A DNA stretch of 64,000 bases from Blasia pusilla (GCA_050084515.1 CM114271.1:28706001-28770000), one strand, 5' to 3'. Shown: positions 457 to 44,100, counted from the first letter of the stretch. Program-made: numbers and translations. Notes: a model not told the origin generated them from the letters alone.

Positions 457-619
457 AATGTGGTCCACTTGCTACTCTCTTCTAAAGATTTCATGAATTT
501 GAAAGCAAACAAAAATTTCAAATATGTCAAAAAGTTTTGAAGAGAGGAGGCGGATTTTGCCCTTTTTTTTGAAGAGAGACTCTCCTCTCTTCCTCTCTCC
601 TGCCAGAATACCAGCCCCC
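457..619 (-). mobile_element. Inverted, truncated left (MTase-side) terminus of the Mutator-like element
   Basis: Reverse complement of 939-1112 and homologous to 62395-62579. Homology stops at GGGGGCTGG. The flank 620-628 reads GCTCGGTGC on the minus strand. Confidence 0.75.
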
Positions 620-938: not shown

Positions 939-2287
939 GGGGGCTGGTAATTTAGCAGGAGAGAGTAAGAGAGGAGAGGAAGAGAGGAGAGTCTCTGTTA
1001 AAAAAAGGGCACAATCCGCCTCCTCTCTTCAAAACTTTTTGACATTTTTGAAATTTTTGTTTGCTTTCAAATTGATGAAATCTTTAGAAGAGAGTAGCAA
1101 GTGGACCACATTCGGGCCTAAAGTAACCTTCTTTTTCCAGGCTGGGAAAAACAAGTAGACATCATAAGACCACTACAAACATTCTTCCATCACTCTCCAT
1201 GTGAACCCAATTTTCTTCACATTGCGTGTCTAAGCCAGCTCTATAGTAAGTCGGGCTGAGGGGTATTATTGTTGGAGGACCGTCGGCATATAATATGACC
1301 AGAAGTAGCAATTTCATCTCAATGAAAGGTTCAAATAAAGACTCTAACTATGGTCTCAATAGACTCCTGTGCCCTTTAAGGTTTAACTTCTCTGAAGATG
1401 TGGTTGACATTATGGATTGTTGACTCTTCTTGCAAAAGGCATTAAATATCCCATCCGATCAATACTCATCCATGAGGGGGTTTTCCACAACAAAACAAAT
1501 CACTCATCACTGATGGTAGCCGAAGACTTTCATGACAACATTGGATGATATTGGCTCATGAATGGATGCATAAATTATACCATGGAGTGCTATGCATTTG
1601 ACAACTTGGTTTCACCATTCTCTCAGCCACTGAGAAATATATGCATCAAGAAGAAAATGTGATGAGATTGAGAGGATAATCGCGTCAAAAGGTTGATAGC
1701 TGTCAGGAGGAAAGAGGAACTGATGCACCCATGTCCCTTCATTCATACCCTAAATGTCAGAATCCGACAGGTTGCACCCCTTCCAACCCGTCGAAATCCG
1801 ATGGGTTGCACCCCTTGCAAGCAAACACACCACAACAAAAGAAGGATCTTGAGAAGTGATTCCATTCCATCCTGCAACCCATGAGAATCCGACTGGTTGG
1901 GAATTTGACATGAGAATCCGACAGGTAGTAGGAATCCAACACGTCTATGAAATACCGTGTTAGAGAAGAATGGTGTGACGATAATGGGGGAACGAGGCAA
2001 AAGTGAAGAAGCCTGCCAAAATACGAGAGCCTGAAAAGTTGGACTAACAAGAAAAGAGTGGAATCACTCAAGTAGCCAACCTGTCGGAATCTGACAAGTT
2101 GCCTGCAAGGGGTTTAAATTATTGTGACAAGATGCAACCCGTCGGAATCTGACGGGTTGCAAAATAAACAGCCTCGAGTAGATAGACCAACGCAATCGAC
2201 AAGAACGAAAAACAATTCAGCAAAAGTTTACAAAAACCATCATGGTTCAAAACCTTCGTGTCCTTTATTACATCCGAGGGAAGCTCA

Positions 2288-3520
2288 CAAATTGCCATTG
2301 TGTCAGGCGCCTCTAATACTCGCCCCTGATAGGCCCACTAAGTCAAAGACCAAGTCACCCGGCCTGGAATAGAGCTCGATGAGCGTTTGCATCAAGGCAG
2401 GTGACTTTTCCCTTCCTCCAAGTAAGGGGTTCACGTCTTGCATGTAAATTCCCAAGGGGGACTTGTAGAGACTATCTAAGTTGTACCCATCGGAGCATGT
2501 ATCCACTGGATCCGGGATACGAAACACCTGGAAGTTGTGCTTGGGCCTTACAAAGTAGTGGACAAATGAGTGGTCCATGTGTAAACAAGGAGGTAAAAAA
2601 TAACGTCAGCAAAAAGAAAAAGCTAATAGACTGCTGGTCTACTCTCCATAAACTGAAACAATGTGCAAACCGTCAGGATCCGACGGGTTGCTTTTCAACC
2701 CGTCGTACTAGTCCATAGTAATTACCAACTTGTCCGAACTTGGCCTATAGGCCTGACAGAACAGCGACCAGTCGGAGTCCGACGGGTTGTCTTACAACTC
2801 TAAGACCCTTTTTTGGCCATGAGCAATCCTTCGAAAGCCGATAGGTTACTCATCTTGCTAGACAGAAGCTCCACTGTTTAGAGTGCGATGGTTGGCTTAC
2901 AACTAAATACAATTGTTAAGAGTTGAGAAGTTCCTAATATAAGAGCAACCCGTCGCTTTTAGACGGGTTGTATCACTCCAAAAACATGGGGAAAAGCAGT
3001 GCTATTTGCAACCCGTAGGGTTGCAGTCAATGGGGACTTGTTGGTGAATTTGCAACCCGTCATTTTCAGACGGATTGCAACACCACAGACACAAGCTATT
3101 GGGATTCGACGGGTGGCATGCATATATGGAACCCGTCGGAGCCCGATGGGTTGAATTTTTGTTAAACTCAATTCGTTGAATAAGAGAACTTACCCGGACT
3201 TGACTTGTCGCCGATCGAAGTGGATACTCATTTTTTATTACCCATGATTGCGTCGTCCTCCACTTCAACGACCTCTTCACGCATTGAAGGTTGAAGAGCT
3301 TGTCTTTGCTCCCTCTAGTGAGGACCAAGAAACAACCCCTGTCACTCTGATACGTGTCAGCAAAAGAAAACCACAGTGCGATTTGGTCGTATGAAAGCGA
3401 GACATTACAGTCTCGGACAGTATCAGACGGATTGTTGTCCCACAAGCAAAACCCAGAAGGCAAATCCGCAATGAGGAGGTCCACCGCCACTTCCTCAACC
3501 ACCCCATGCACCGTCTAGCT
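2288..3520 (-). pseudogene. Second copy of the last two exons of the N4/N6 DNA-methyltransferase-like gene
   Basis: VDLLIADLPSG (motif IV position)...SATSQVR|gtaag, intron 3193-2528, cag|VFRI...REKSPALMQTLIELYSRPGDLVFDLVGLSGAS. Same splice sites as the 5019-9754 copy. Premature TGA. Confidence 0.75.
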
Positions 3521-3672
3521 CGAGATAGCCATCTATCCCTACCTACCATGATATACATCTCTTGGACGCTAAGAGCAAGAAGGCCGAGTGCTCATGTGGC
3601 CCCATTGTTAGTGGCCTTCTTGTCATCCATGTCACGGACACAAGTCAAAATGTAGAACTACCTACTCTATGA

Positions 3673-4860
3673 TCATCTGGGATACATCCATCGTCCCTGA
3701 GGAACCCTAGTGAGTGGTGGCGTCAAACATGCCATATGCCATCCTCTTGAACACCTATCATAGACTACCATAGTGGCTGCACCACGGGCGGAACCACACA
3801 ACATACACCGCAAGCCTGCAGAAACTATTGCTAAGCTCGGATTAATTATACTGTCAATGTTTGGAAGATGACATGGCGCAGAGTTACGCACATGGTCCTT
3901 CCAAACCATACCATCGCGTCCCTCCAATAAGAGAACACTGGATGGCAAAACCTCACGCACTCTCAAGATGGTGCGCCTTGCAGTCACATCCAACATCGTG
4001 GATGCCGTCTACTATAAGTAGACATAGTCTCCTTGATGAAACCTCCGGATATTAGGTTGATAACAACCTCCTCGAATAGTCGCATACCTCAATATATCCC
4101 GATGTTGCGCAATCGCCAAGTTCTCAAATGCCATGGAGATCACTATCCAAAAGAACTCAATCCTCAGAGAACATGCTCGCATCCATACATCAGGGTCATC
4201 AAGGTTCAACACCTCACCAACATCTGGACGAATGGTGGCTGGTAAATCTGGCTCTCGACCATAAAGCAACAAGAACGGTGAGAAAGACGCTAAGGATGCC
4301 TCCATGCTAAATCTGTATCCCATCTCCAACCATGGAAACTAAAGGTCCCAATCCCCTATGTGACCCCTCTACAAGCCATACTTGTGTAGTCATCTCTTCA
4401 TTGTCTGCACAACCCGCTCCGCTAGTCCATCCGCCTCAAGATGATCTCGCGAAGTAGTGCGGCGGTCGATCAGTGCCTGATCACACAAGGCTTAAAACTC
4501 CCCGCGGAACTCTATACCTTGGTATGTCAACAACTTAGCTGGTACGCCATAATGACTCAACACTTGATCTAGGGAGGCATACACTACTCCCTCACGTGCT
4601 TTGTCAAGCAATGCAACCAACTCTATCCACTTCGAGAAGTGCTCGACCATGACCAATACATAACAACTATGGCGCTCCGTCAAAAGAAAAGGTCCTGCAA
4701 AATCCAAACTCCATCTACAATCTAAACCCATGATCCGAAGTGGATGCAACTGTGGAGTCGGAGCATTGAACGATGCTCAGACTTGATCACACACCATGCA
4801 TGTGGCAACAAATTGCTGAACGTCAGTCTGCATGCCTCGCCCTCAATATTGAATCTTGAG
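3673..4860 (-). mobile_element. Ty3/gypsy integrase core plus C-terminal PHD finger (fragment)
   Basis: WSLDFAGP...VMVEHFSKWIELVAL...YGVPAKLLTYQGIEF; C-terminal CMLCGS...DRCSRGWHMACLTPPLTRVPQGRW (PHD). Stops and frameshifts. Confidence 0.85.
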
Positions 4861-5018
4861 AACTCCATCATCGTTCGAAAAAATCTTGTCCTTAATTACA
4901 TCCGAAGGAAACTCGGAACTGTACATTTGATCTATTCTATGAATTCTTTTGCCTCGTCATCAAATAAATCCCTACTCCAAAATGCTGCACTCGAGCTAGG
5001 TCTTTGAGTTCTTTGAAC

Positions 5019-8000
5019 TCACTTGTCATCGTCCGAGAGCTCTTCCAGAATTACTATCGGCCTTGCCCTGCCAATTTTTGGAATCGTGGGAAGTGACGAT
5101 GGTGTCACTACCAATGGTGGGCTTGGAACCGGAGCTCTCGGCTTCGGAGGAGAGTTGTACGCCCCAACTAGCGTGTCGTAATCTGCCTTTGCCTCTTTGC
5201 AAAGGTCAAACAGTTCTTGCCTTCCCTCAAGGCAGAGAATGTTCTTGCCCCTCTGCCAGGCGCCTCTGATACTCGCCCCTGAAAGTCCCACTAAGTCGAA
5301 CACCAAGTCACCCGGCCTTGAGCAGAGCTTGATGAGCGTTTGCAACAACGCTAGCGACTTTTCCCTTCCTCCAAGTAAGGGGGTACCATTTTGCATGTAA
5401 ATTCCATGGGGGGAATTGTTTAAACTATCTAAGCTGTACCCATCAGAGCATGGATCCACAGGATCCTGGATCTTAAACACCTGGAAGTTGTGCTGGGGCC
5501 GAACAAAGCAGTAAACATAGGAGTGGTCCATGTGTAAAGAAACAGGTTGGAAAAAATGTCAGCAACAAGAAAGAGCTAATTTCAGTATGCAACAACAAGA
5601 AAGGTATACTATCATAATGGTGACATAATGTGCAACTCGTTCCCAAAGAACTTCGCTTAACCCCAAAGAACTTAGTTATAGTCCTAACATTGGAGCAACC
5701 TGTCGGAGTCCGACGGGTTGTTTTACAAGTGTTAGTGATTTTTTTTGCCATGAGCAACCCGTTGGAAGGCGACATGTTGCTGGCTTAGAGCATCCCATGG
5801 TTGGCTAAGAGCAACCCGTCACATTCAGACAGGTTGCATCATTCCAGAAACACAAGGAAAAGCATAAGCACTTGCAACCCGTCGAGTTCCGATGGGTTGT
5901 ATTCATCTAATGGAGACTTGCGGTAAATTTGCAACCCGTCGCTTTCAGACGGATTGCACCACCGAAGTCTCTAGCTCAGACAATCTGACGGATTGCATGC
6001 AAAGATGCAACCCGTCGGAGCAAGATAATTTGGATATGGATTTAGAGCCCTTACCCGGATTTGACTCGTCGCGGATCGGAGTGGGTACTCGTTCTTGATG
6101 ATCCACGATTGCGCCGTCCTCCACTTCAACGACTTCTTGACGCACTGCAGGTTGAAGAGCTTGTCCTCGCTCCTTCCAGTTAAGACCAAGAAATAGCCCT
6201 TGTCACTGGGATAAGCGTCTGCAAAGGAAAACAGGAGCGCGATCTGGTCATAAGAAAGAGGGACATTCAAGTCTGGGACACCATAGGACGGATTCTCGTC
6301 CCAAAAGCGCAACCGTGAGGAAAAATCAGCGACAAGGAGATCCACCGCCACTTCCTCAACTTCCCTATGGACCGTCCAAGGAGCATGCCCATGTCGTTGA
6401 AGCTTCCAGCGTTGTCAATTTGTCGATGGCGGGTGTCGACGCTTAGGAACTGAAACTTTGCAGCTCATCCAGAAGATTCGTGCAGTGAATGATGGCGCTT
6501 GTTCGGGTCATTGTTTCTCTATGTCTTCCCAAGGATGATGGAGTGTATTCCACATACACTCGAGGGCTTGCTCCTCCGCATCTCCTTCGAAAAAGTCTTC
6601 AGGCTGCACCAAATTGGGGATGTCGTCCTTACCTGGAGCCACAGCATCATAGAGCAGGCGTAGATTTTTCTCGGTTATGTCCTCAGGGTCGTTGAAGTCC
6701 AGCCAGATGGGACAATTCTCCATCTCCCAGTCGGACATGCTTTGAGCCATCTCCATGTCGTACATGGAAAATGTCTCTCCATCAGGCGGAGAAGCCCACA
6801 ATTTGCAGGCGGCCGGTATTTTTTGCCACGTACCTGCATTCTTACAATGGACAAGGTACCTGAACACCATGCGTTGGGCAATTCTTAGTCTAGATGTATC
6901 GGCCGCCTGCTCCTAAAGATCTCGCTTTTTCTTTGCAAAATCCCTTTTCTTCACCTCTATTTCTTCATCAAGGTCCGCCTGAGGGAGGATGTGATCCTTG
7001 AACATCGTCCAGAAGCCTGGGTTTTTTATGGGCTCGTCCCAGATGTCATCCTGCCAAAATTTAAAATCTTCAGCACTCTCCAGGTTTTCTTCCTCCGGAA
7101 CAGGCTCTATTTTTTTCAGCTCCGCTTGAAGATCCACAAGCATGGACTTCCCGAGAAGCTGCAACGCGTCCCAAAATGACCATTCACGGAGCCAGTGGGA
7201 GATCACTGGATCAGAGACACCCGGAGGATGGTGTGCCGCCCTCTTTTGGGCCTCTGTGCCCTCGAGATTGATTTTCATCAATCGGATTCTCCTAAATTCC
7301 AAAATTCCAGACAAGGCAAATCGATGGACGCGGTCGAGAGACACTTTCTCCCCAATCCGACCATGCAGATCTTCATCCCTCTTCCGCTCGCGCTTGATTA
7401 TCGCCTTCAGCTCCTTGTAGAAATTGGGGCCAAGTTTTGGGTCGAGAATGGTGATGTAGTGTTGCATCTTTCTTGGAGTGTACTTCGTAGCTGTAGATAC
7501 TGCAACTTGGATGAACTTAGTACGCTCAGACAGAGACACTTTCTCCCTCCGCTCTAGCTCCAATGAAGCGCTCTTCTTGGCGGCCTGTATCTTCGACCAG
7601 CAAAGGATTGTCACGGCTGCATCTTGGGAAATAAATGTATTTGCCCAAGTCTTTTTTTTTTATTTGAGCCCCCTCCGCCAGCATCTCATTTACAAGGGCG
7701 TCGCCCAAGAACCCCTTGTACTCTATCGGGTGCGTCGTTACCACTTTCTTCACCCGATCGTAATCCTGGATCCAGTGGTGGGTGACATTCCCCTCGGATA
7801 CAATCCTGCACATCCAAACTCAATATAAGAAATTTTGCAAGCTACATGGGTTCCTGCAACCCGTCAGACTCTGACATGTCGTCACAACTCATGGTCGGAA
7901 TGGTAGCTACGAGCTAAATTTTGCAACGCATTGGAGTCCGACGGATTGCATTCAGATTTGTGATTGCCTGGTTTCAACCCGTCAGACTCTAACGGGTTGT

Positions 8001-9754
8001 AAGAGAATTTGTATTTAGAGAGGTCTCCGCGAGAAAAGTGAACATATCAACCCGTCGGAGTCCGACAAGTTGCACAATTTCAAGTAAAGCTGCAATTTGA
8101 CGCCAAAAATCAAGCTCCCCTACTCCGATCACCTTCCCGTGCCGACGAATGCAACCCGTCAGAGTCTGACGAGTTGCTTTCGACCAAAAACATCCTAAAA
8201 AAAGTGGCCAGTCGAGCAACTCGTCGGACTCCGACGAGTTGCTTTCGGCCAAAAACATCCTAAAAATAGCGGCCAGTCTAGCAACTCGTCGGACTCCGAC
8301 GAGTTGCTTTTGGCCAAAAACATCCTAAAAACAGCTGTCAGTCAAGCAAATTGTCGGACTCTGAGAAGTTGCTTTCGGCCAAAAATATCCTAAAAACAAC
8401 GGCCAGTCAAGCAACTGGTCGGACTTTGACGAGTTGCTTTAAGGCACCCGATGTTTTGTTACCACTAGTTAAACAACTCGTCGGAGTCCGACGGTTTGCA
8501 ACAATCAAAATAAAGGAAGAGGAAACTTACGTGTTCATGGCATGCATGGCCATCTCCACCGTGGCCATGTGATGAGGGTATGGATGTAGCACGACTGCCT
8601 TCACGCGGAAATGCGCCTCCAATGAGTTTTGGCGCTCCTCTGCAAACTGGGTCCACGCCATGAACCTGTGGTTTCCATCCCAGATGAAGAAATACAGGTT
8701 CCGCATCCAACTAAATTCCGTCCCCTCAATCGCCCTTCTGAATTCCTGATCTCTCATCCTCCAGAATGTGTCGAGCGCTTCCAAGTCCTCCTCCGTCACC
8801 AACGCTTGGGTTCCATGTTCATTGTAAGGCTGAACATAGAACGGAGGAAAGCTGTCAACATAGGATGTTGTCGCTGCCGATTGTTTCAGCTTTGCAATAT
8901 CCTCGTTAGACTGAATTTCGCGGTCGTACTCCATTGTCCGCAATCCGCAAAGTGGAATTCTTGGGGCGTTCTGGCCGTCCATCAGTGCCATCTGCTTTAC
9001 CACCTGTCACAACGGGGACAAGGTCAATAAACTTCACTAAATTGCCAATGAATTGCAACATGGGCCTTCACATAACTCAAAGAACAAAGATTGTATCTTA
9101 CTTGCTCGAAGATTGGGTCGGTGTCTTGGCCCGCCAACTTCTCTAGGAGAGCAGCTGGAAAGTCCACTGGAAACTCGTCGATCCGATAGAGGTCTATTTC
9201 TTCCACCAGGCTAAGAGACGAGGAAGATTGCTCTCCTTCTTCTTAAGAGATGTCCACCATCTCCACGCTGGCGGTCCTCATGACCTGATCGTCCATCACT
9301 TAAACTTCGTACGTTTCCTCAGCCGATTTTATATTGATTGTGTCCCCACTTTTCATCGGAGATATTTCCTACATCTCAATACTTTTGGTTGGACGGGCTG
9401 GGCTTTCTTCAATGGCAATCACTTTTTCCCTTCGAGCTTTTTCCAATTCTGCTCTTCTCACCGACGCGTCCATACGTTTCTTTTCACGCTTCTCCTTGGT
9501 AATCCTTTTCTTCAAGGTCGCGATGCCTCAGCCTTTGCATTCTGTTTTTCAAGCGCCTCCTTAACACGTTTTGCAAGAAGCTCTTGCCTGTGCATCTCCA
9601 CTTCCCTTTTGCGCTCCTCGATCTCTTGCTGCCTTATCTCATTGGCCGAACGAGGCCCTAGAGATGGTGACGCAGGAAACCTAGACTTGGGAGTGAAGTT
9701 CCTAGCCTTGCTTGCTTGAGTTTTTTTCCTTGTCATTGTTCCCGAAAATGCCAC
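5019..9754 (-). pseudogene. Spliced ParB/Srx-like + beta-class N4C/N6A DNA methyltransferase-like gene (transposon cargo)
   Basis: Phase-compatible GT-AG introns 9101-9004, 8530-7806 and 6054-5481. FFIWDGNHRFMAW (8665-8679). VDLLVADFSS at about 6320. REKSLALLQTLIKLCSRPGDLVFDLVGLSGAS...GKNILCLE (about 5220-5370), matching beta-class order IV...X-I-II. Start position uncertain; several stops and frameshifts. Confidence 0.75.
8151..8440. repeat. Tandem repeat, 65-bp period, about 4.5 units, each starting with the palindrome
   Basis: Units start at 8151, 8216, 8281, 8346 and 8411 (gcaactcgtcggactccgacgagttgc...aaaaacatcctaaaa). Lies inside intron 7806-8530. Confidence 0.9.
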
Positions 9755-10025
9755 CTCCTCGACAACGAAATTACTTTCTATGCACGATGAGTCGCTCAGA
9801 TGAGTCTCCTCGATGAGTCACCTTGATGAGACGCCGTGTAAAGCGCCCCTTGGTATCTGGTCCGCTGCTGCGTTGAAGAGCAATCGAGATCACGAAACAA
9901 AAAACCTAAAATGAGCAAACCCTAGCCTATTTATACTTTTCGAGCCGTTGGGCTGACCGTTGGGTTGCACCATTGTTCCGACGGTGACGTGTCGGCCATT
10001 ATGGAGGTGTGGACGTGAAAACCAC

Positions 10026-10375
10026 CAACCTGACGATCTCCGACGGGTTGGAGGCATCCGTCCTAGCCGAGCTATCCTGGCAACCCGTCGGAGTCCGACA
10101 GGTTGCGCGCCTCCACCATTTTGGGGGAAGAATGCAAGGTACCCGCCCAACCCGTCGAAGACCGACGGGTTGCACCCTTCCCTCGTCTTGGGATAACAAG
10201 GCGGGGTAACTGCGCAACTCATCGGAGGCCAACGGGTTGTACGCTTCCTTCATGTAAGCATTATAAGGCGAGGCACTTGCGCAACCCGTCGGAGGCCGAA
10301 GGGCTGCACGCTTCCCTCATCTTGGGGTTATAGGCGAGATACCTGAGCAACTCGTCGCTTACAGACAGGTTGCAC
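10026..10375. repeat. Palindrome array (about 67-bp period) between the divergent MTase and transposase genes
   Basis: CAACCCGTCGGANNCCGACGGGTTG variants at about 10027, 10081, 10148, 10215, 10282 and 10348. The intervening sequences resemble each other. Confidence 0.85.
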
Positions 10376-10895
10376 TCATTTCTATCCCTTGGGTAACAAT
10401 GCGACAACGGATAGTTCCGAGGCAACCTCTTGCAATCCGACGGGTCTGAAGGTCTACCCTGAGTTGGACAATCCCGTAACAGTCCCCAGCGATTAGTTAC
10501 CTTAGCAAATGCAAGCGATGTCTCATGTTTGATGCTAGCAAAATCGTCTCAAAAGACCATTGGTCGGCATGAAGGGGGTACCAACCCAACGAACTTCGAC
10601 GTCTTCCAATTTGCATTGGGACACGGAAACAAAAAATGGAACTAAGTGCTTCGCAACCCACGTCTCTGATTCCCAAATTTTGCAACCCATCGGACTCCGA
10701 CAGGTTGCAACAGAATTGAATCCATCATGTCAAACAATCTCACCTACCAAACTTCATCTTGTCAGTCAAATTATGTTAAGAGAATCTGAGTCCCTATTCA
10801 CTATAAATTGAACATTCTCATTCTCATTCTCATTCCCATACCTATTCTTATCCTCATTCTTATTCTCTGTCTCCTTCCAGAGGAATCTTCTGGGA

Positions 10896-13800
10896 ATGGA
10901 TAATTATGTGAAGCTCACTTGTGGCAGTCATCTAGCGGCCCTTTCTCAATGAGAAATCGTTCGACCGCAAGCTCATGAGTCTTTCATAGCAGTGGATGAA
11001 AATTTTCTCTCCGTTCGATGTCTTCTCCAAATTGGAACCATCTTTGTGTCCAAGGATGTTAGGGTGGACGGTACAAAGGACATAATAGGTGAGACAATCC
11101 AGCCAATGATTGCAGACCGTAAAGTATGGAATCTCCTACCTATAGCAAATGGTCAATATAGAGTTTACGGCTTGCCTCTGAATTCCTATGTTTCCCAAGT
11201 AGACGGTCGAGAATTTCCTAGTGCACCGAGCTCTACGTTTGCAACTCCTAGCTCAGTAGATCCCGCATCGACTCCAACTTCATCTGTTCGTTACAATGTT
11301 GTACTTCCTGAAGAAATTCCCGATGTTGTCAACCTTAGTGGATTTTTCGGACACCAACCGGGCCCTCTGTCCGCCTACTTGTTCCTCTTACGAATATCAG
11401 GAAATAGTTTGCTATCTTCTATGGCCTTGAAAATGTTCAAGCACATTCTTGTTGACGAGCTGCCGCCCACGTATGATGGTAATTGTATTTTTGAGTTGCC
11501 TCCACTTGCTGCTCCTGCTCAAAAGAAAGATGGAGGAGGCTTGAAGGGTATGGACAGAAAGTCTGATTGTCATCGATGGTGCACGCTTCAACGGACTAGT
11601 GCTTCAATTTCAGATGGTCCTTGGATTGTCTCCCGCCGCCAATGCATTGGAGCCTTGGAGTGTAGAAGTCCAGCATGCCCATATCTAGAGCGCAACGAGC
11701 GGGTCAATACGTTGCAATTCCCCCCCAAGAATGCAAAAACTCCATATGAGGTCGGTGTCACCATACCATCGGGAGGCCATCGATGTCCTCATTGTCAAGC
11801 ATCCCCTTTCTGCGTTGGAGCGTGTCCTGCATACATATTTTTCACTGTCCACGACTTGGGCTCCACGTCAGAGTACACAAGGCTGGCAGTTCATGTTGGC
11901 TCCCACACTCATCCTGTGATCGATGCAATTCAGAGACACATCAAGGAGGATGTGGCGAAGAAAGTGGCCGAGGTCTACAGAAACTCTTCAGGTTCAAAGC
12001 CCGGAGTGATCAAGCTCACAACAACATCACAAATTTATGAACAATTGCTTGGAATCCCTGGACAGGGTGAGATCACGGCTGTTGAGGAGAAACAACTCTG
12101 GGAAAATCTCGCATTTCTCCCTGATCTTGAATGCTTCCGGAATTTTCGACGTCAAATTCGTGTACTGGATGGAAAGACGGCCGAAATGGATGCCATTGCT
12201 AGAATAAAGGCCAACTCCAGATTTCCATTCATTGAGAGATGGCAGTTCATGGGCTAGGGAGGCGAAGGATCCAGGGCCTATATCTTCAAAATATCAACGA
12301 CAGGTCCGTCGAGTGGCCTCGATCTTATAGATCGAATGTGAGAAGGGGAAGATCTTTACGGCAACTGGGTAAGCTTTGATATTTGCTACAGAGTGTTGAA
12401 CGGATGGTTGACGATGGATGCTCACGTTTATGACCATTGCAGAAGGGACTCAAAACTATATTTGTCTGTGAAGTAAAAGCAGAAGACGTTGGCAGTTTGA
12501 AGATGTGCTGGTTACTCTTATTGGAGGTGGTGAAGGAAAACAAAAGGCCACCTCCATAAATTTACGGGTTCATGGCGGACAATGCACAAATTGGGTGGAT
12601 TGCTATTACGGAAGTGTTTTGGGATGGGGAGGTTCAACCGGAGAGAGAAAGGTCGGATGCTTTCCATTGGCAACAGTCTGTGACCCGGTACACCAAATCT
12701 TGCATCAAGGAGAATAAGAGGACGGGGCATGTCACTCTACTCCAACGCTGCAAGGACAACAAAACCTTGAAATAGGCCATGGAATGCCAAGAAGAAATTC
12801 ATGGGTGGTGGAGGAAACATGCGATTGAGGGGAAGTACAAAGAGTTATGCTCTTGGTTGAGTTGGTGGACTGGACAAGTGAGACAATGGGAAAACTTCAT
12901 GCGGGAGGTGAGTTCACTAGTTTGTCTCGCTGAAAATTGTTTGAAGAGTTGCAACTAAAGGTGAGAATCGTGGGCACTATAGGGATTTCAAACGAAGAAA
13001 CCAAGCAACTTGTCAGATGCAACAAGTTGCCTCCCTGAGTGTTCAACCTGTCGCTTACTAACAGGTTGCCTGAGTGTGCAACCAGTCGAAACCCGACGGG
13101 TTGCAAGTCGCATGACCAAATTTACTTGCAACCCGTTGGAATCAGACGGGTTGACGGGTTGCCTAAGAGTGCAACCAGTCGGAAAAGGACGGGTTGCAAG
13201 TCCCATGGCCAAATTTACTTGTAACCCGTCGAAATCCGACGGGTTGCACTAGGTGGTTCCTGGGTGTTGCAACACGTGAGAAACCAACGGGTTACAGATT
13301 CATTCATGGGATGCCTCTGACTTGCAACCCGTCTGGTTTCGACAGGTAGCTTTTTTCTTTGCTTATAAAGCTATTTTGGTTCCCTTCTTCCAGTGCCGTT
13401 GTTGCAGGGATTGAACATTCATGAAAATGCCCTCTGCCCCAACACAAGTGAAAGTGTTCATTCCTCCTGGAGGTTGTCACAAGCATGCCAAAGAATTTCA
13501 CTTGTGGAGGCATGCCAACAAGACCACGCAAGAGCAATGCTACAGTCTGCAGCATCCCATATCTTCCTCACAAAAGGTATAACAAAAGGAAGGGGGCCTT
13601 CGATCTATGAGCTCTATGTCAAGGAAACTATGAGATTGGGTGATGAGAAACTCTATGTAGAAGCCTTCAATCGGTGCGTAGTAGGAACTCCCCTCGAGCA
13701 AGAAGTACACATTGGTGGGGATATTCCTGGGCGCGTTTCAAGACGTCCCATACATATGGTGGAAGAGTTGTCCGAGCGAGACTCGTGGAGACCAGATAAG

Positions 13801-14901
13801 TATCAAACTTCAGGTAGGTGAAGAGGCAACATCGAGGAACGAATCCGGTGATTGATTTGTATGAGGAAATTACGCCGCCCAGGTATTCGAGCACCTTGAA
13901 CTGCTCCCAAATCCATGATGGAGTAACTTCTCCAAAATCAGTGAATTTTTTATTTCAAAGCCCTCCGTTGCTGGAAGTTCGCAACATCCGGTCGATGGGT
14001 TGGTTCAACAATATGGGATTCTGGTCATGGAGGTGGATTGCAACCTAAAACGGTGGCATATATCTCGGAGCAACCCTGGACGTGGACCCACTTGTAGGGC
14101 AAGATCTTATGGCATTAGGAGAGCATGCGGCACTTTCCTAAATAAGAACTGTACAAGGACTAGACGACCACTGCCTGGGTTTTGGGGACTCAAAACCTTT
14201 GATCGTTTCATGAGGACCGGGATCAATTGAAGTACTTCTTCTTCCCAAATGAATCTTGCGCTTTCCGTAAGTCTTATCCGGCTGCCATTGGAGCTCCGGG
14301 GAATACCCCCACGATTTGGCCCATTGCCGCAGGTACGTATTGCACTCAAGACGAAGTGGACAATCTTACAAGTGCCGATTTCAGACTCATAGACGGAGGA
14401 AGTTGAGAGCATGTTTGCATTACAAAGATCTTCGCATTTCGTATTTAACTCAAGATTGACGTCAACATGTACTCGGAGAAGGTGGATGATCTCAATCCAC
14501 TATTTCTGTTTGAGTCTGGAAATGGGGTGAAGAGAAACAGAATGTGTATGCCAACGGTGGAGAGAGCAAAGCGAATTGCATCAACTCGAGAGGCAAAAAT
14601 GGAGATCATCGCCACAAAAGATGTCCACATTGGCAATGGAATAGGAAGGATGTATTGGGTCACGAACAACACTGTAAATTCAAGTGTCATAGGGGTGTAT
14701 GTGGTGCACATCTGTTGCTTTCCCACATGTTCATGTGATGACTTTGTCCAAAGAGAGACAAGTGGCAAAAGGTATTTCCCTTGTAAGCACATGTACTATG
14801 TGTTGCTTGTAGTTTTAAGAAGGTCAGAGGTAGGAGTAGGAATCCACCAACCAATTCTGTCCCTCAAAGAAGTGCAAAGTATTTTAAACAAACCACTTTA
14901 A
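10896..14901 (+). pseudogene. Mutator-like DDE transposase with N-terminal Cys/His (GCM/WRKY-like) region and C-terminal SWIM zinc finger
   Basis: Putative D at 12378 (VSFD), D at 12578 (FMADNA), AFHW at 12662, E at 13450 (NTSESVH). SWIM CSCDDF...PCKH (14727-14790). Phase-0 intron 12908-13407 (FMRE|GLNI). Multiple TAG/TGA stops and frameshifts. Confidence 0.8.
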
Positions 14902-15649
14902 GGATGCAAAATGAGGTTTTAGACTATACTTTCATTTTTCCAAAACCTTCACTTTGAGCTTGAACTCTATTAAGCGTAGGGCAAATGATAGATTTTTTCC
15001 AGACCTTGGATGGAAAAAGTGATTGGTTCCACACTTATGATTCCACTGATTTTTCAATTTTCTAAATTTTGTGCAATTTGCAACTTGTCGGACTCAGAGG
15101 GGTTGCCAAAATGTGGAAGAGGAAAAAAAACTGTGGGAGTGCTTAAGAATTGAGCAGAAAAGTGCAATAAAATTCACACAAAAATTTTCCTCTCTTCAAC
15201 CCAACGGAAACTCTCTTCAAATCACAGGAAACTCTCTCCAAAAAAAAGTATCTCTTTCGGTTGAAGGTAGTTTCCTCTCTCCTCTCTCCTTTCTTCCTTT
15301 CTTCCTCTCCTCTTACCGCACCTCGCTCGGTGCGGGCCTTGGATGCAGGCTTAGGGTGGGCCTTGAGCCCACACCTGCCTACATGGATCCCGCAACAGCC
15401 TGTTGAGAGCCCATGCCTAACCAACCCTGAGCCCGCGCCTACACGCCCTAGCCTGCACCCAAGGCTCACAAGGCGGGCTTTAGGCTTGCACCAAGCCCAC
15501 CTTGGCTGGGTTGCGGGCCACGCAACGGGTGCTAGCTATGGGTGGGCTCGGGTGCGGACTGGGATGCGGACTCGGGTGCGGGTCTCGGGTACCTGGACTC
15601 GGACCCGCACGAACATGGACATGACCGCGGACACGGAATTTTTCTGTGT

Positions 15650-16380
15650 GCAACCTTGGGCTTATGGGGACTAAAAGCCTTTTATTGTCTTACAAGGATA
15701 TGGGATCAATTGAAGTACTTCTTCTGCCCAAATGAATCATGCGTGTTCAAAAAGTCCTATCCATCCGCCATTGGAGCTCTAGGGAATACCCCCATGATTT
15801 GGCCCATTGTTGTAGGAACCAATTGCACTCAGGAGGAAGTGGACAATATATCTTACAAGTTCAGGGTTCAGTTTGGTACACAAAGGGAATACGTATTACT
15901 GAGATATTACATTTTGGATCCAACCTAAGATTGATGTCAACTTGTATCTAGAGAAGGTGGATAATTTCAATCCTCTATTTTTGTTCGACTCAAGAAATGG
16001 AGTGAAGTGAAAGAGAATGTGCAGGCCATCGATGGAGAGGGCAAAGTGAATCGTATTGGCTTGGGAGGCCAACATGGAAATAATTGCCACAAAAGATGTG
16101 CATAGTGGGAATGGAATAGGAACAATACCGTGAATTCTAGTGTTTTTGGGATGTATGTTGTACAGATATGTTGCTTTCCCATATGTTCATGTGATGATTT
16201 TGTCCATAGAGAGACAATAGGGAAAAGGCATTTCCACTGTAAGCACATGTATTATCTTTTGCTCGTAGAGATTAAGAGAGCTTTAAGAGAGTTGGAGCTA
16301 GGAGTAGGAATCTACCAACCAATTTTGTCCCTGAAAGAAGTGCAAAGTATCCTAAACAAGCCACTTTGAGGATGCAACAT
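15650..16380 (+). mobile_element. Additional decayed 3' fragment of the same transposase (SWIM region)
   Basis: Homologous to 14175-14910; ends CSCDDFVHRE...CKHMYY...SILNKPL*. Confidence 0.85.
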
Positions 16381-17939: not shown

Positions 17940-18215
17940 TTAGAGAGGAAGGAAATTTTTTAGCATATTTCACAATATTGTTCTCTATTCTTAGTCACTC
18001 CCACAAATGTTCTTCCTCTTCCCCATTATGGCATCCCGTTTGAATCCGATGGTTTGCAATTTCACGAAACATTCTTTCTCCAATAATCCATCAACACATA
18101 ATTTAAAAATTGGAATCACAATGTGGGACAAATCACTTTTTCCATCCAAGGTCTCAAAAAATATATCATTTAAGCATGCTGATAAGAGTTCAAGCTCATA
18201 GTGAACAATCTGGCA
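17940..18215 (-). mobile_element. Fragment of the right subterminal region of the Mutator-like element
   Basis: Homologous to 56660-56920 and 62780-63050; includes one palindrome at about 18031. Confidence 0.7.
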
Positions 18216-38188: not shown

Positions 38189-41100
38189 ATCTCAGCTTCA
38201 ACATCGTGGGTGCCGTCTGCTGCAAGTAGACATAGTCTCCTTGATGAAACCTCTAGATAGTAGGTCGATAACCACCTCCCCGAATAGTCGCATACCTAAA
38301 CGTATCCCGATGTTACGCAATCGCCAACTTCTCAAACGCCATGGGCATCACTCTCCAAAACAGCTCAACCCTTTGAGAACATGCTCGTATCCATACATCA
38401 GGGTCATCAAGGTTCAACACCTCACCAAAATCTTGACAAATGGCCGCAGGTAAATCTGCTCTTGGCCATAAAACAACAAGTACGATGAGAAAGATGCTAA
38501 GGATGCATGCTTGCTGAATCTATATCCCATCGCCAAGCACGGCAACTGAAGGTCCCAATCTCCTAGGTGACCTCTCTACAAGCCATACTTTTGTAGTCCT
38601 CTCTTCACCGTCTGCACCACTCGCTCCGCTAGTCCATCTGCCTCTGGATGATCTTGCAAAGTAGTGCAGTGGTCGATCAGTGCCTCATCACACAAGGCCT
38701 GAAACTCCCCTCGAAACTATGTACCCTGGTCTGTCAACACCTCAGCTGGTGTGCCGTTATGACTCAACACTCGATCTAGGAAGGCATAGCTACTCCCTCA
38801 CTTGCTTTGTCAGGCAACGCAACCAACTCTATCCACTTCAAGAAGTGCTCGACCATCACCAACATATAACGACTATGGCGCTTCGTCAAAGGCAAAGGTC
38901 CTGCAAAATCCAAACTTCATCTATAACCTAAACCCATGATCGAGAGTGGATGCAACTATGGAGTTGGAGCTTTCAACGATGCTCGAACTTGATCACACAC
39001 CATGCATCTGGCAACAAACTGTTGAACGTCAGTCTGCATGCCTTGCCACCAATACTGAATCTGGAGCAAGCTGTACGTCTGCTTCACTCCAAAATGACCC
39101 AACTCCTCGTGGGCATGACGCACCAAACGTGCTCTCTACGAAGGATGAGGCAATACACGCACTCTACCATCCTCCCACACTCGCAATACATGTGTGCCCT
39201 CCCACCAGAATCGTCTGGCTCACTGTAGGATCCGATCCCGCTCTCTAGCACCTATTGTGCTCGCGACGCTGCTAGTAGGTAGATACTCCAAGACTACTCC
39301 ATCATCATGAATATCTCGGCCACAAGACTACTCCATCAACATGCTTCAATTTGTGTGCAACATGAAAGTACGCCCCATGATCGGTTTCTTGAAGATGGGC
39401 GGGGATGTTAATCTATCCTTGAGCAACTGAAATACTCGCTCTTGCTCATCCCCGCAGTGCCACTCATGATCCACCTTGGTCAGCAAGGTCAGTGGCTTTG
39501 CAATCGAACTAAATCCCTTGACGTACCGCCAATAGAAGTTCGCCAATCCCATGAATGCACGAACGCGGCTCACATCTGTAGGGCGTGGAATGCGTGAAAT
39601 AGCCTCTACCTTCGTCTGCTGAACACGAAGGCCACCTAGGTATATTGTATGACCCAAGTACTAAATGTGGTCGTAGAAGAACTTACACTTGCCTGGATGT
39701 AGCTTCAGCCCATGTAACTGCAATCGTCAAAACACCTCCTCTAGATGTCGCTCATGCTCTTTAACCATGGCACTAAAGACTACGATGTCATCAATATAAG
39801 ACCCAGCAAAATCCAGACCTGCCAAGATCCTATCCATGACCCTCTGAAACTCATCCGGGGAATTCTTTAACCCAAATGGTAAGAACCGCCACTAGTACAA
39901 ACAATCCTTCCCGTGAGGATTGATGCCCCAAAATGCCGTCTTTTGCATGTCCTCCAATCTGGTAGGCAATTGATGGTATCCGACTCGCAAATCCAATGAA
40001 CTAAAGACCTTTTTGTGACCAATTGCATCAAAGATCTCCTCAAGAGTGGGCATGGCATACCTATCGAACTTCATCTGCCGATTGATAGGTTGGTAATCCC
40101 CACACATCCGCCTACCCGTCCAGTTGCCATGCACATCCTTCTTGGCAGGCATGACAATGACAGATGTATACTCCCCATGCAATATCTCCACTAGTCCTGC
40201 TCCAACCAAGTCCTGGCTCCTACTGTGAATCAGAGCCCTCTCCATATCATTGTACCTGTAGGGTTGTCGGAAGATCTGCGCATCACTCGACAATTCAATG
40301 CGGATCCCTGGTCCCTTTAGAGTACCTAAATCCTCCATGCTAAACGCAAAGCAGCTCCTATAACTCCTAAGGAACTGATGTATCCGGCGCTGCTCTTCTC
40401 CTGTCAACTTAGGGCCCATATCTGGCTCCCAAGTCTCCATCGTGACTAGGGAAGGACTCTCCGGCGTGGGTATCGATGGTTGCTATGGTGCAACCCCGTC
40501 TCAAACACCAACACTTGACCGCTCTCCTGCAACCAAATGCAAACTCTGATCTCCTCCACATGGAGTGCCCGTAACCACGCTCCATGTTATGGCTATCATC
40601 TCCTGGCGTACCTGCAAAACATCTCAAGAAGTCCAAGGGTGTCTCTCCCGATCTTCCCTGGTGTGTCGATCTCCTTGGGTCTCGCCCCCAGCCACTGCCT
40701 CCACCATCTCGGTAGGCATGGGGCTCACCAACGCAACCGCTGTGATCTGTCGCGATCTCATCCGACGCTGCTCAGCCACTCCCAAGCTAAAGATCCATGT
40801 CAAGCAGTTCAGGTCCATCGCCTAACCCAAGACATGGTGTCATGATGCCTCTGACAGTGACGGTACTGCCGTCACTCCCGTGGGAAATCCCATCGCCCGC
40901 TTTCTCTCGTCGGCGTTGGGCTCCACCAACCTCTGAACCTGGTCATCCCAAACCAAGCCAAGACCGGCCTCCTTGTATGCCTAGGAAGCGGAAAAACTCA
41001 CAAACGTGAGAAAGGCTACCCGCGGCCGACCTACCCTGTTGACTAGAGTCAACGGCGGTTGATCATCGTGCCTCACTGCCAATGATCGATGACCCGGATC

Positions 41101-44100
41101 CAGAATGAAATCCACTAACAAGTGGGAGGGGCGCTCCACTCTTGCATACGCCCTCCGCAACACCTCGTGTGGTACCATGTTGGTCCACCATAGACGCGGG
41201 CGATGTGCTCCGTAATCCACACTCGCCGCATCCAAAACTAAAGCTGGGCCGATCCAGGCACGCATCTGATGTGCACTCGTCACCACCCGTGACCCTAAAT
41301 CGCCCAAGATCGGTACATTCTCCAGAATGTAAGCCAAAGAACGGGACTAATGCTCTTGCAAATATCTCAAGACCCTCAGCATCTCCCAAAATATCCTAGA
41401 TCGAGTGTCAGCCAACTTGATGCCTTGTCCAGCACTCGATTGACGGTGACATGGCCAACCTGCAATGACCAAATCAATGGTCCCTACTCGCTCCAAATCC
41501 TGCGCCCCCAGCAACGAAATATCCCTCGGTAGGGAACTCTGGTACCCCTGTACCGCGAACGTAGATAATAAGTTGGGAAAACGTAGGCGTAACTACGCCA
41601 CATGTCATAGTGAGACGTGCCTTGCAACATCATCACTCTCCATATACAGGTACTGATGCACTCGCACTCTTGCTTGCAAAACAACAGCTAACCCGGTGCT
41701 AATCCCTCCAAAGAGATCTAACACCTGAATATCCTCCTCCAGAATACGCCACACAATGGGTGTGGTATCCAAGGGTGTCATCGTAGTCCTCCTTGGTACC
41801 TCGGGTTCCTCAGACCCATTACGCTCCGATGCAAACGCCTCGCTCCACGCGGTCTGCACGTGCTCATATGCCAATTGTCGAAGCTCCTCAATCAAGCCCC
41901 AAAGTGGCACCTCTCCTCCACGGAATAATACGGCTACCATAACACTCCTTTCCATAGAAATTTCATGAACATGAGTATCCTCTGCATGGACATGTCCCTC
42001 AATCAAATCACTAGGCCAAGTGATGGCACTGCTAAATGCTGCTAAGGTCGCCACCTCTCCTGGCCGTCGCTCGATCACTGCACCTGCGAATCGAACGGGT
42101 AATGAGCTAAGGCGCCCATCACCTGAGTGCCATCCTGGTCTGTAGGACGCTGACTCCTCCCAGTAGTCGAGGGAAAATCCCATCGGGTATAACACTGCTC
42201 CACCAACCAAGACGTCGTAGGACTCTGCAGCAGTCACTATTGCCTTGGCTCGCACAACAGACTTATTGGTAGGATGTCCCAAGAAAATCCTCACCACGAC
42301 CTCCTGTCACGTGATATACTATGTGGACTCACTCCACCCATGGATGTCTGTATTCGAAATGGACAACGCTCCACATCAGCTCTCGTCAAGCCCAATCCTC
42401 TGATTGACGCTTTCCCCAACATCAAGGATTACGCTCCTGAATCCAACAAGACGCGATGTGGACTAAAAGCTCTACCTCCGGGACTCACCAACTCGAAGAC
42501 CTCTCCTTGATTATCCAACAACTCAACACTAGGAGAAGCCATGGCACCCTCTATGGCGGGTCTAGCGGGCATCTCCGCCATCCTAGCAGCCGCAGCCTGC
42601 CATCAATTTGCCTAGTCTATTTTTTGGCTTCCCTTCGTTGTGGATCCAACTCTACAGCTGCTCCATGCGTCACAACTGCCGTGGCCTCCATTTGGGCAAC
42701 CGTGCACATCCAACCAGGATCCTCCATATCTGTGGCTGCTCAATATGATGCCGATACCACGGATCCAGCATCGGGTAATCTCAATGGCATAGCGGCAATC
42801 TGCTCCTGTAGCTGTTGTCTCTAATCAGCCATCCCAACCTCATGTCTGGCGTCTCCCTCGGCGCGTCTAGGTGGTGGTACTCTACCTCCTCCATGGGCAG
42901 CTCCACCACCATGTCGGGAAACTCCAGCTCCTTGTCCCCCAACTGGACCACCTGATGCACGATCTCTAGCCCACCCGGACCGGCTACTCGCTTTGGTGCC
43001 CTCTATGGCCCTCGGTCGAGACGTAACTCAGGATGTAAACTGAAACACATGGCGCGTGTATGACCATACCTCTGAAAATAGTCATATTGATAACCTCCTA
43101 GTGCAGCACCATCTCCTCCTCCATATTGAGGCACACGTCCATGACCCTGACGAGTGCAATCGCGCTGATAATGGGCTCCACCACATGACCAACAAGTAAT
43201 AGTATGTAGCTACTGCTGAGCCGCATATGAAGGCGCAAGTCTCTGTGGCACGGCCTCCCGGTATCCTCTCTCAGCTCGTGGTCCCACAGTCGACCTATCT
43301 CGAAGTCCACGTTGCTGCACAGGTGGTGCAGACAATCGTGACTACTCTCGCCCAGAACCCATGGTGGCTACGCTCTCCTCCGCCATGTTGCGCTCAATAT
43401 TCTCGGCGGTCCTAAAAACGTCTCTCAACGTATGGGAGGTGTTCATAAGAAGCACCTCCTCCCATACCCGTGCCCGCATGATCCGGTCCAGCATCACGTA
43501 CCATGTCTGGATAGCCTGAGCCTCTGTCACCCCCTGAGTGACGTTGATCAACCAACGCAAGCGAGTATAAGCCTCACACAAACTCTCACCCGGGCGCCTC
43601 TAGAAGTCGTAGATACTCCGCAACTTCCCCGTCCGTAGCCCCTGGTAGCTCGCCCTCAACTCAATAAAGAACTCAACCATAGGGTTGAACCTGGGACAAA
43701 CCCGACTAGAGGGTGCAACTGCTCCAGCGCGAGTGACCCCTCCTAAAACATCATTGGTGGAAGAGGAAGTAGCCTCTCTTGACTCTTCCTCCTCATCAGG
43801 GAACCGCTCCGTCCATGACATATAGTGTGGGTCATAGTAGAGTCGCCATGCCTCAATCTCCTAGGCATATCTGTTGGAGAACTCATGGTAATCGTCCATG
43901 GGCGCCCCCTCTAAATGTTGGAACATACCAATCCATGTTGTATACGGGTTGAATTATCTAGAGTTCTTAGCCCACTATGAGTCACACCAACTCCTAAACT
44001 CCGCAATGAAGTCGTGTAGCTCTATAGTGCCTACATCACCGGAAAACCGACATGGTCTTCTACCCCGGTCGTCCATCTCGTACGTCCAACTGGTAGGACC

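Follow-up and report, generated by a model that had tools for sequence, protein, structure and literature searches.

The window analysed here is a 64,000-nucleotide stretch of Blasia pusilla DNA (GCA_050084515.1 CM114271.1:28706001-28770000; positions are counted from its first letter), which is eukaryotic and repeat-rich and in which a profile scan revealed fragments of reverse transcriptase and integrase. An earlier annotation, here called the original prediction, had described 939-15324 as a Mutator-like transposon carrying a spliced gene with ParB-like and DNA amino-methyltransferase-like domains. Our preferred explanation, to which we assign a probability of about 0.55, is that the region holds a dead and rearranged member of a cut-and-paste transposon family whose accessory protein binds the family's own palindromes and serves mainly in non-catalytic regulation or shielding of the element. 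An intact element of about 10.5 kb would then begin with a left end, followed by the minus-strand accessory gene, an intergenic region from which the two genes diverge, the plus-strand transposase gene and a right end. The accessory protein, predicted to have about 1,000-1,200 residues, would consist of an N-terminal ParB/Srx domain, a central part of about 400 residues and a C-terminal beta-class methylase-like domain. It would recognise a 27-bp palindrome with the consensus centre GANTC, arrayed between the two genes and within their introns, and would assemble on its own element's DNA as ParB does on parS. The assembled protein would regulate or shield the element at the level of expression, host silencing or transposition. 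It would act mainly by binding rather than by canonical N6-methyladenine (6mA) or N4-methylcytosine (4mC) methylation, with the methylase-like domain serving as an S-adenosylmethionine (SAM)-binding or DNA-reading module.

The region 939-15326 is not the single clean element that had been proposed. It is a composite of a left-end fragment of one copy, an integrase piece and a second copy without a left end, because it contains a duplicate of the methylase exons at 2291-3514, an integrase/PHD piece and no left end beyond 5019. The main copy (copy 1) spans 5019-15326 and is dead, both of its genes containing in-frame stops. The separate left-end fragment from 939 to about 3590 (copy 2) is 74-83% identical to it. 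Self-comparison of the window revealed two more copies on the minus strand. Copy C (62644-64000) consists of a right end and the 3' part of the transposase gene and runs off the window. Copy D (56545-62579) is internally deleted, the deletion having joined two palindrome arrays. Besides a right end and a left end, it retains the 3' half of the transposase gene, split by a retroelement bearing a reverse transcriptase, as well as 12 palindromes and part of the last methylase exon (61982-62173). As copy D keeps both ends around its internal deletion, the length of the intact element could be estimated at the value given above.

The accessory gene of copy 1 forms a chain of minus-strand open frames that runs from about 9740 to 5019. 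The presumed N-terminal coding region (9027-9740, from frame views) is charged, of low complexity and broken by several in-frame stops, six of which fall in the read-through of 9027-9611. It is followed by a 159-residue frame with the motif DGNHR (8527-9006), in which the exon predicted to adopt the ParB/Srx fold (8533-8991) ends at a GTAAGT donor at 8532, and by a small frame (7658-7798) preceded by a CAG acceptor. The frames 6913-7659 and 6508-6912 are one frame interrupted by a single in-frame TAG (6913-6915), and two methylase-like frames (5971-6414 and 5019-5558) complete the chain. The central region (6508-7798, minus strand, about 400-430 residues) gave no Pfam, NCBIfam or PDB match, and a homologue search with its 248-residue open reading frame found nothing. 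Near 7650 (7640-7660), where the central exon contains ten consecutive A, the reading frame shifts, which may be a homopolymer assembly error rather than a real indel. The first methylase-like exon (6052-6375) is predicted to encode the N-terminal half of the domain, from motif IV (DFSS) to motif VIII, and the last exon (5019-5531, stop codon 5019-5021) the C-terminal half with motifs X and I (DLVGLSGAS), as judged from Pfam, PDB, atlas and alignment evidence. Copies of both exons in copy 2 (2291-2602 and 3104-3514, minus strand) show 75% and 67% identity to copy 1 by tblastn. The donors are canonical, with GTAAGG (copy 1, after 6052) and GTAAGT after the first methylase exon in the two copies.

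The ParB/Srx assignment that had been based on the DGNHR motif was upheld by structure prediction. The model of exon 8533-8991, computed from a 49-row alignment, reached a predicted local distance difference test score (pLDDT) of 92.5 and a predicted template modelling score of 0.86. Its best PDB matches in Foldseek were Noc (E 2.1e-3) and ParB (E 4.1e-3), with a probability of 1.00 and none at E ≤ 1e-3. Residues G111, N112, H113 and R114 are near-invariant in the 49-sequence alignment, and DGNHR occurs in 84 of 153 protein records (146 matches, 5 cluster mates and 2 window read-throughs). The predicted fold thus makes the assignment sound, although sequence profiles do not support it; one language-model atlas cluster with an 11% share of ParB_N is a lead only.

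Homology of the C-terminal half to N6/N4 methylases, and its permuted beta-class order with motif IV before motifs X and I, is established by sequence comparison, in agreement with the original prediction. Alignment of the family with six phage and plasmid N6_N4 methylases by hhalign gave a probability of 98.5% and an E-value of 2.4e-15 over 200 columns from motif IV to motif I; five of these six reference enzymes were scanned with Pfam and matched PF01555 (N6_N4_Mtase) at E 1e-22 to 1e-36. The alignment profile had five PDB matches at E ≤ 1, all of them beta-class adenine methylases, among them DpnA/M1.HpyAVI (2.6e-4), CcrM (1.8e-3) and RsrI (0.015). CcrM gave the longest alignment, with 200 positions (profile positions 123-323). 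In addition, the last exon matched M.RsrI in a PDB sequence search (E 0.004) and PF01555 at E 0.0018, with 18.7 bits below the gathering threshold of 26.7 bits. Liverwort homologues likewise score under this threshold (23.7, 24.8 and 26.2 bits), and a precomputed PF01555 label is present on 4 of 26 liverwort models. All five atlas clusters listed carry PF01555, and both window exons align end to end with the liverwort methylase models. A tblastn search of phages and plasmids with the liverwort methylase domain returned weak matches (best E 0.01 and 0.003, below 40% identity), the 20 listed ones all falling on annotated DNA methyltransferase genes, and revealed no close donor of the domain among these phages and plasmids. 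A homologue search with the last methylase exon and metagenome scans with alignments of the two methylase exons found nothing.

The domain order of the accessory protein was further supported by intact relatives. A HMMER search of 1.84 billion representative sequences with the ParB exon yielded 146 proteins at E ≤ 1e-3, 38 of them at E ≤ 1e-10, with identities of 23-46% overall and 29-41% in the latter group. The 20 relatives that were looked up comprised nine proteins of the liverwort Riccia sorocarpa, two of Adiantum ferns and nine from metagenomes or read assemblies. A 1207-residue Riccia protein is collinear with the window exons: its residues 165-321 correspond to window positions 8991-8533, 324-368 to 7798-7658, 375-706 to 7647-6562 (so that 324-706 cover the central region), 956-1045 to 3490-3221 (the first methylase exon of copy 2, E 0.022) and 1057-1161 to 5525-5205. 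The sole match for the first methylase exon of copy 1 (6372-6052) was a weak one (E 0.92) to residues 931-1038 of a 1191-residue paralogue, P0014. The methylase part is present in 26 liverwort gene models on several chromosome-size contigs, and the fern homologues are shorter than the liverwort proteins of about 1,200 residues. A transposase-like segment was found in none of 184 homologue proteins.

Some results weigh against this view of the protein. Pfam ParB_N (PF02195) matched none of the 49 alignment members at E ≤ 1, a single weak match to DndB (E 0.066) being the only other hit; the ParB family profile found no ParB among PDB sequences, and the DGNHR exon alone was recognised neither by Pfam nor by a PDB sequence search. 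The model of the methylase-like domain (liverwort P0152, 18-row alignment) had a pLDDT of 46.5 and was too poor to use; Foldseek found no match to it at E ≤ 1e-3, the best being M1.HpyAVI (E 0.024), with CcrM at rank 12. In motif I of both window copies (DLVGLSGAS), another residue takes the place of the first glycine, a departure from G-x-G. Finally, neither copy has an AG acceptor between the in-frame TGA at 5559-5561 and the first conserved codons near 5534, and the nearest in-phase acceptor, a CAG at 5493-5495, would cost the exon 15 residues that both copies conserve and that align with liverwort proteins. Candidate acceptors are this CAG and a site close to the ATG, near 5531; the exon might use a non-canonical acceptor, begin at an internal start or be 15 residues shorter. 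The conserved block of this exon starts with TTTACACATGG and has an ATG in a good initiation context (5493-5561 and 2540-2622). A U12-type or AT-AC intron before the last exon was also considered and dropped, because the donor is of the U2-type GTAAG.

Membership of the accessory gene in the transposon family was evaluated by comparing the copies. The methylase exons recur at 2291-2602 plus 3104-3514 and at 61982-62173, each time adjoining a left end. Between copies 1 and 2, the ratio of nonsynonymous to synonymous substitution rates (dN/dS, omega) was 0.32 for the last methylase exon (Fisher p 3.6e-4) and 0.19 for the first (p 3.5e-9), and between copies 1 and D it was 0.14 for the last exon (p 4e-8). 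Copies 1 and 2 align over both exons without a single gap, and the alignment with copy D has 3 gap positions; for the intron that separates the methylase exons, by contrast, omega was about 1.1 and 108 gap positions were needed. The low exon omega and near-gapless exons, set against the gap-rich intron, indicate that the copies diverged while the gene was functional. Recurrence with the left end together with purifying selection between copies supports the accessory gene as a long-standing gene of the transposon family and not a neighbour. The suggestion that the methylase segment is family cargo is thereby strengthened, with the segment found beside the left end in two further copies at an omega of 0.14-0.32.

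The candidate target of the accessory protein is a 27-bp palindrome, GCAACCCGTCGGA-N-TCCGACGGGTTGC (13+1+13). With at most 5 mismatches tolerated over the 24 positions scored, a scan found 51 sites in the window and none in each of 20 shuffles. All 51 lie inside family sequence and in non-coding parts of the element only: 36 in 939-15326, 14 in copies C and D (56750-62893) and one at 18031 in a right-end fragment. Seven occur in the divergent intergenic region (10025-10708, with a 67-nt period at 10068-10357), eight in the intron after the ParB exon (7923-8499, with a 65-nt period at 8151-8440), five in the intron between the methylase exons of copy 1 (5695-5957) and likewise five in that of copy 2 (within 2291-3514), and six in a transposase intron (13078-13350), so that array periods are 65-67 nt. 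A single palindrome lies about 250 bp inside the right end (15080-15106) and has counterparts at 62893, 56750 and 18031. Positions 13 and 15 are A in 38 and T in 40 of the 51 sites, which makes GANTC the consensus centre; the centre is exactly GANTC in 21 of 51. Departures from the consensus are mostly C-to-T or G-to-A changes at the four CpG positions of the palindrome. These changes fit deamination of host 5-methylcytosine (5mC), and the family copies were therefore probably methylated and silenced at some time.

We infer that the accessory protein binds these palindromes, but they could instead be transposase sites or inserted hairpin repeats, which weakens our explanation. A rival account takes up this point: the palindromes would be sites of the transposase zinc finger or hairpin repeats spread within the family, unrelated to the accessory protein, which would act on host silencing factors or transposition intermediates in the manner of mudrB or VANC. 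Transposase-bound subterminal repeats are common in plant DNA transposons, and one palindrome does stand at a conserved place, about 250 bp inside each of four right ends; the deletion breakpoints of copy D, lying in palindrome arrays, also suggest recombinogenic repeats. The distribution of the sites argues in the other direction. All but one of the 36 sites in 939-15326 are internal, arrayed in introns and the intergenic region rather than terminal, and the terminal 175 bp of the left end contain none. Moreover, in a red-algal parallel, inverted-repeat arrays are set beside a ParB-domain gene (bioRxiv 10.1101/2025.02.11.637652). We treat this account, taken as a whole, as a serious minority possibility.

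Whether the methylase-like domain is catalytic was assessed from its motifs. In amino-methyltransferases, the flipped target base is stacked against the aromatic residue of motif IV, without which known enzymes are severely impaired. In the window, motif IV reads DFSS in copy 1 and DLPS (DLPSG) in copy 2. Among 21 liverwort models it reads DLPS (nine), DMPT (four), DLPT (three), DMPS (two), DLSS (two) or DMSS (one). None of the 21 liverwort models and neither window copy thus has an aromatic residue at this place, at variance with the canonical (D/N/S)-P-P-(Y/F/W). Because the aromatic residue is missing from both window copies and from all 21 liverwort models, canonical 6mA or 4mC methylation is doubtful, and so is the original idea that the element marks or protects its own DNA in this way. 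In contrast, the SAM loop appears to be retained in the liverwort, where motif I is DFAGGWGA and 19 of 20 models have G-G-x-G; both window copies keep the acidic residue (E) after strand 2 but have the altered motif I given above. A consistent exchange of the aromatic residue for Ser or Thr, with the SAM loop largely retained, suggests a domain that is non-canonical or non-catalytic. The reference phage and plasmid enzymes (DPPY, DLPY or DIPY in motif IV) and one fern homologue (DVPF) keep the aromatic residue; as the fern DVPF and bona fide methylases with D-L/I-P-Y exist, part of the family may be active.

It is accordingly necessary to weigh the alternative that the accessory protein is an active amino-methyltransferase, which would be targeted by its ParB-like domain and would place 6mA or 4mC on its own element as a mark or protection. 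Homology to N6_N4 methylases extends over the full length of the domain, the SAM loop is retained in 19 of 20 liverwort models, the acidic residue is kept, and the gene has been under purifying selection. In annotated phage and plasmid methylases that match PF01555 at E ≤ 1e-24, the first proline of motif IV is likewise replaced (D-L/I-P-Y), and the fern DVPF has been mentioned. GANTC, the palindrome centre, is furthermore the site of CcrM-type beta-class enzymes, and CcrM gave the longest PDB alignment. Set against these points are the absence of Y, F or W at the fourth motif IV position in all liverwort models and both window copies, the VGLSG of the window motif I, and the residues right after the motif IV aspartate, which differ between the window copies despite the low overall omega. 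On balance, an active enzyme appears unlikely, and we prefer action by binding.

The second gene of the element (10953-14901, plus strand) is a transposase gene with several predicted exons, encoding a Cys/His-rich N-terminal region, DDE-like motifs and a C-terminal SWIM motif, as read from frames and motifs. Its first frame has 434 residues and is Cys/His-rich; shorter frames follow, and the last carries CxCx16CxH, a SWIM motif read directly from the sequence and placed after the catalytic region. Pfam SWIM matched this last frame below threshold (E 0.008, range 0.008-0.015; 16.2 bits versus a cut-off of 19.6 bits). The transposase gene is interrupted by in-frame stops at 12255, 12339, 12557 and 12773, across which its frame is otherwise continuous. 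The frames of 12200-13450, examined by eye, contain as candidate residues one D, then another D with D-x2-H behind it, tryptophans and N-x2-E. The last transposase exon gave an omega of 0.29-0.47 in two comparisons between copies (Fisher p 5.9e-5 and 0.048). The transposase gene and the accessory gene diverge from 9800-10950, which bears out the earlier description of a SWIM-bearing, transposase-like gene facing away from a multi-exon gene on the opposite strand.

The ends of the family, which had been defined from three copies each, were recovered by self-comparison of the window. The left-end sequence is common to termini at 939, 619 (inverted) and 62579; the right-end sequence is shared by the termini 15326, 62644 and, approximately, 56545, and 17942-18205 holds another fragment of a right end. 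The left end of copy 2 (939-1113, plus strand) is GA-rich, and a second left end (457-619, minus strand) belongs to another copy running leftwards; 457-1112 is self-complementary at 71%, and 579-619 is 95% identical to 62539-62579. The right end of copy 1 (15267-15326, minus strand) was placed by comparing termini across copies, and 13997-15326 is 87% identical to 64000-62644 reversed. Left and right termini align only loosely, in inverted orientation, over a GA-rich stretch of about 60 nt. In a comparison, resting on fragmentary copies, of terminal inverted repeats and of the 8-11-bp target-site duplications expected of Mutator elements, the flanks of 939 and 15326 had no target-site duplication in common, and neither did those of copy D (56545-62579); this counts against a single insertion bounded by 939 and 15326, and against our explanation. 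Local alignments in search of a left end for copy 1 downstream of the accessory-gene stop (5019) scored at shuffle level.

The assignment of the element to the Mutator-like group is probable. Mutator-like element (MULE) transposases have an N-terminal zinc finger, a DDE triad and a CH motif plus a W that lie after the second D and before the E, as summarised in a published description (PMC5225508). The order D...D-x(n)-D-x2-H...W...N-x2-E observed here, read by eye, fits that description. What remains of the Mutator-like claim is the SWIM motif and this order of candidate DDE residues, whereas profile support is missing: four read-through pieces matched no transposase profile, MULE and Transposase_mut included (Pfam E ≤ 5, NCBIfam E ≤ 1), a scan that is weak evidence in a gene split by introns and decayed, and the Cys/His-rich N-terminal region likewise had no profile match. 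These null results, which speak against our assignment, would be expected if the element belonged to another or an undescribed DDE superfamily with a SWIM-like zinc finger. Such a placement would also accommodate the loosely inverted termini and the lack of a 9-10-bp target-site duplication in the comparisons above, and the published ParB-methylase accessory genes belong to Sola1 and EnSpm/Plavaka rather than Mutator. Against it stand a CxCx16CxH SWIM motif after the catalytic region, a Cys/His-rich N-terminal region and a by-eye motif order that fits the MULE description (PMC5225508), and we regard it as improbable.

Plant Mutator elements carry second genes beside the transposase, such as mudrB of MuDR and VANB and VANC of VANDAL. 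VANC counters host silencing by acting, in a sequence-specific manner, on repeats of the element that encodes it; we propose a comparable role for the present accessory protein. To our knowledge, the protein folds of mudrB, VANB and VANC are unrelated, and we know of no ParB or methylase domains in them.

Closer parallels exist in algae. According to Dinatale et al. (2025, PMC12477816), Sola1-1_Ec32 of Ectocarpus has a gene for a 1104-residue ParB plus N4/N6-methylase protein opposite the transposase, and its authors propose that the accessory protein binds and modifies its own element. Judged from this description alone, the system resembles ours in protein length (about 1,100 residues), in the two domain types, in the strand opposite the transposase and in the large DNA transposon that carries it. 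It differs in belonging to the Sola1 superfamily and to a brown alga, and palindrome arrays are not mentioned in the passage that describes it. In the Plavaka (EnSpm) elements of Bostrychia, a methylase-SET protein and a ParB-2-oxoglutarate oxygenase protein (PAG2/PAG3) are encoded, and tandem inverted-repeat arrays beside the ParB gene are proposed to be self-binding sites (bioRxiv 10.1101/2025.02.11.637652). These giant DNA transposons thus share with our family accessory proteins with ParB and adenine-methylase domains and inverted-repeat arrays, but their domains are on separate proteins, fused to SET or oxygenase domains, versus one polypeptide here, and superfamily and host differ. ParB-helix-turn-helix-fused Dam-type enzymes are also described from chlorophytes and chytrids (PMC4738411). 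Since ParB-methylase accessory genes are published for transposons of brown, red and green algae, the architecture is a variant of a known theme and not a new kind, and it cannot be called unprecedented in view of Ectocarpus Sola1 and red-algal Plavaka. A literature search for a ParB/methylase gene in a land-plant or Mutator-type element, with supplementary transposon libraries outside its scope, returned algal papers only.

Eukaryotic host genes offer a more distant comparison. Marchantia DN4MT1 is a host gene with a canonical TSPPY motif and demonstrated 4mC activity, and the accessible text of the preprint does not mention ParB; bdelloid N4CMT is a host gene for a eukaryotic amino-methylase of bacterial origin. 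Both resemble the present family in having beta-class N6_N4-type domains in eukaryotes, with liverworts involved. As described there, they differ in being host genes with TSPPY, whereas the family studied here is transposon-borne and lacks the motif IV aromatic residue.

Prokaryotic fusions or pairs of ParB-N and beta-class methylases combine the same two domain types, with a permuted methylase (E 2.4e-15 in the comparison above). Examples are a 415-residue methylase of Vibrio phage D93 and a ParB/PsiB/PsiA/orphan methylase cluster of a Rahnella plasmid. In the leading region of that plasmid, a 697-residue ParB-family gene, psiB, psiA and a small orphan beta-class methylase stand in one cluster. 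These phage and plasmid proteins have 230-415 residues, are intron-less and carry D-P/L/I-P-Y. In contrast, an insert of about 400 residues separates the two domains in the plant family, whose genes have introns and whose motif IV lacks the aromatic residue. No profile match links the ParB parts, hhalign of the ParB family against the N-terminus of the phage ParB-methylase fusion giving a probability of 0.5%. Descent from a single prokaryotic ParB-methylase fusion, as originally envisaged, thus gains no support.

A more far-reaching reading would extend these parallels. A ParB-like clamp would load at the GANTC-centred palindromes and spread, forming a self-recognition module conserved across land plants (liverworts, ferns and this organism). 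The methylase-like domain would deposit a non-canonical mark or read sequence, by which the element would escape or tune 5mC silencing, or excised copies would be tethered. The whole would be a eukaryotic counterpart of plasmid ParB/parS and leading-region methylases, Mutator-type and independent of the algal Sola1 and Plavaka systems. We consider this combination distinctly unlikely as a whole.

One could also regard the ParB-methylase-like gene as part of the host, either a gene in its own right or a fragment captured in the manner of a Pack-MULE, that merely lies near transposon pieces; this would suit a region that is a fragment mosaic with a composite delimited element, but it is very improbable, because the same exons adjoin the same left end in two other copies, the introns share family-specific palindromes, the liverwort homologues are multi-copy, with 26 methylase-part models on several chromosome-size contigs, and omega between copies is far below 1.

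Other features of the window were recorded alongside the transposon. A retroelement integrase and PHD fragment (3673-4860, minus strand; Pfam rve E 1.3e-6, PHD E 1.9e-6) lies outside the transposon, between copies 2 and 1, and is 87% identical to 38199-39066. An integrase core followed by a PHD finger occurs in three fragment copies (3673-4776 on the minus strand, 1-438 and 38199-39066). The sequences outside the left end (620-938) and the right end (15327-15658) have short GC-rich motifs of the type GGGCTT.AGCCCAC in common, and 15331-15385 is complementary to 821-875 at 80%; the shared flanking motifs reflect either an insertion preference for one kind of repeat or true termini that lie further out in some copies. 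Family ends cluster three times in 64 kb (457-1112, 62394-62735), with two left ends facing head to head across 319 nt and, at 62394-62735, a right end and a left end separated by 64 nt, which suggests nested or clustered insertion. Between 38000 and 46000, the G+C content is raised (0.48-0.53) with a strongly negative GC skew, and the minus-strand open frames 39892-40482 and 41605-42306 in this segment have no Pfam match.

Transposons with DNA-binding or DNA-modifying accessory proteins of their own are a recently recognised theme, the published cases being from brown, red and green algae. With the present locus and its related liverwort and fern proteins, the theme reaches land plants and probably another transposon superfamily as well. 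Beyond the original prediction, the analysis adds the 51 palindromes, dN/dS values of 0.14-0.32 and the collinear liverwort homologues of about 1,200 residues with their shorter fern counterparts. It also provides a candidate binding site in the form of a defined 27-bp palindrome arrayed inside the element, and a methylase-like domain in which the SAM loop appears to be kept and the base-stacking residue lost across a deep phylogenetic span. The family at present goes under 'hypothetical', 'DNA methylase N-4/N-6 domain-containing' or 'trimethylguanosine synthase' in liverwort records and under 'hypothetical' in both fern records, and could be given a proper annotation. If the palindromes are bound by the protein, the family would offer a simple system for transposon self-recognition and self-regulation against host silencing; should the protein prove to be an active enzyme, plants would have in it a new source of DNA marks other than 5mC.

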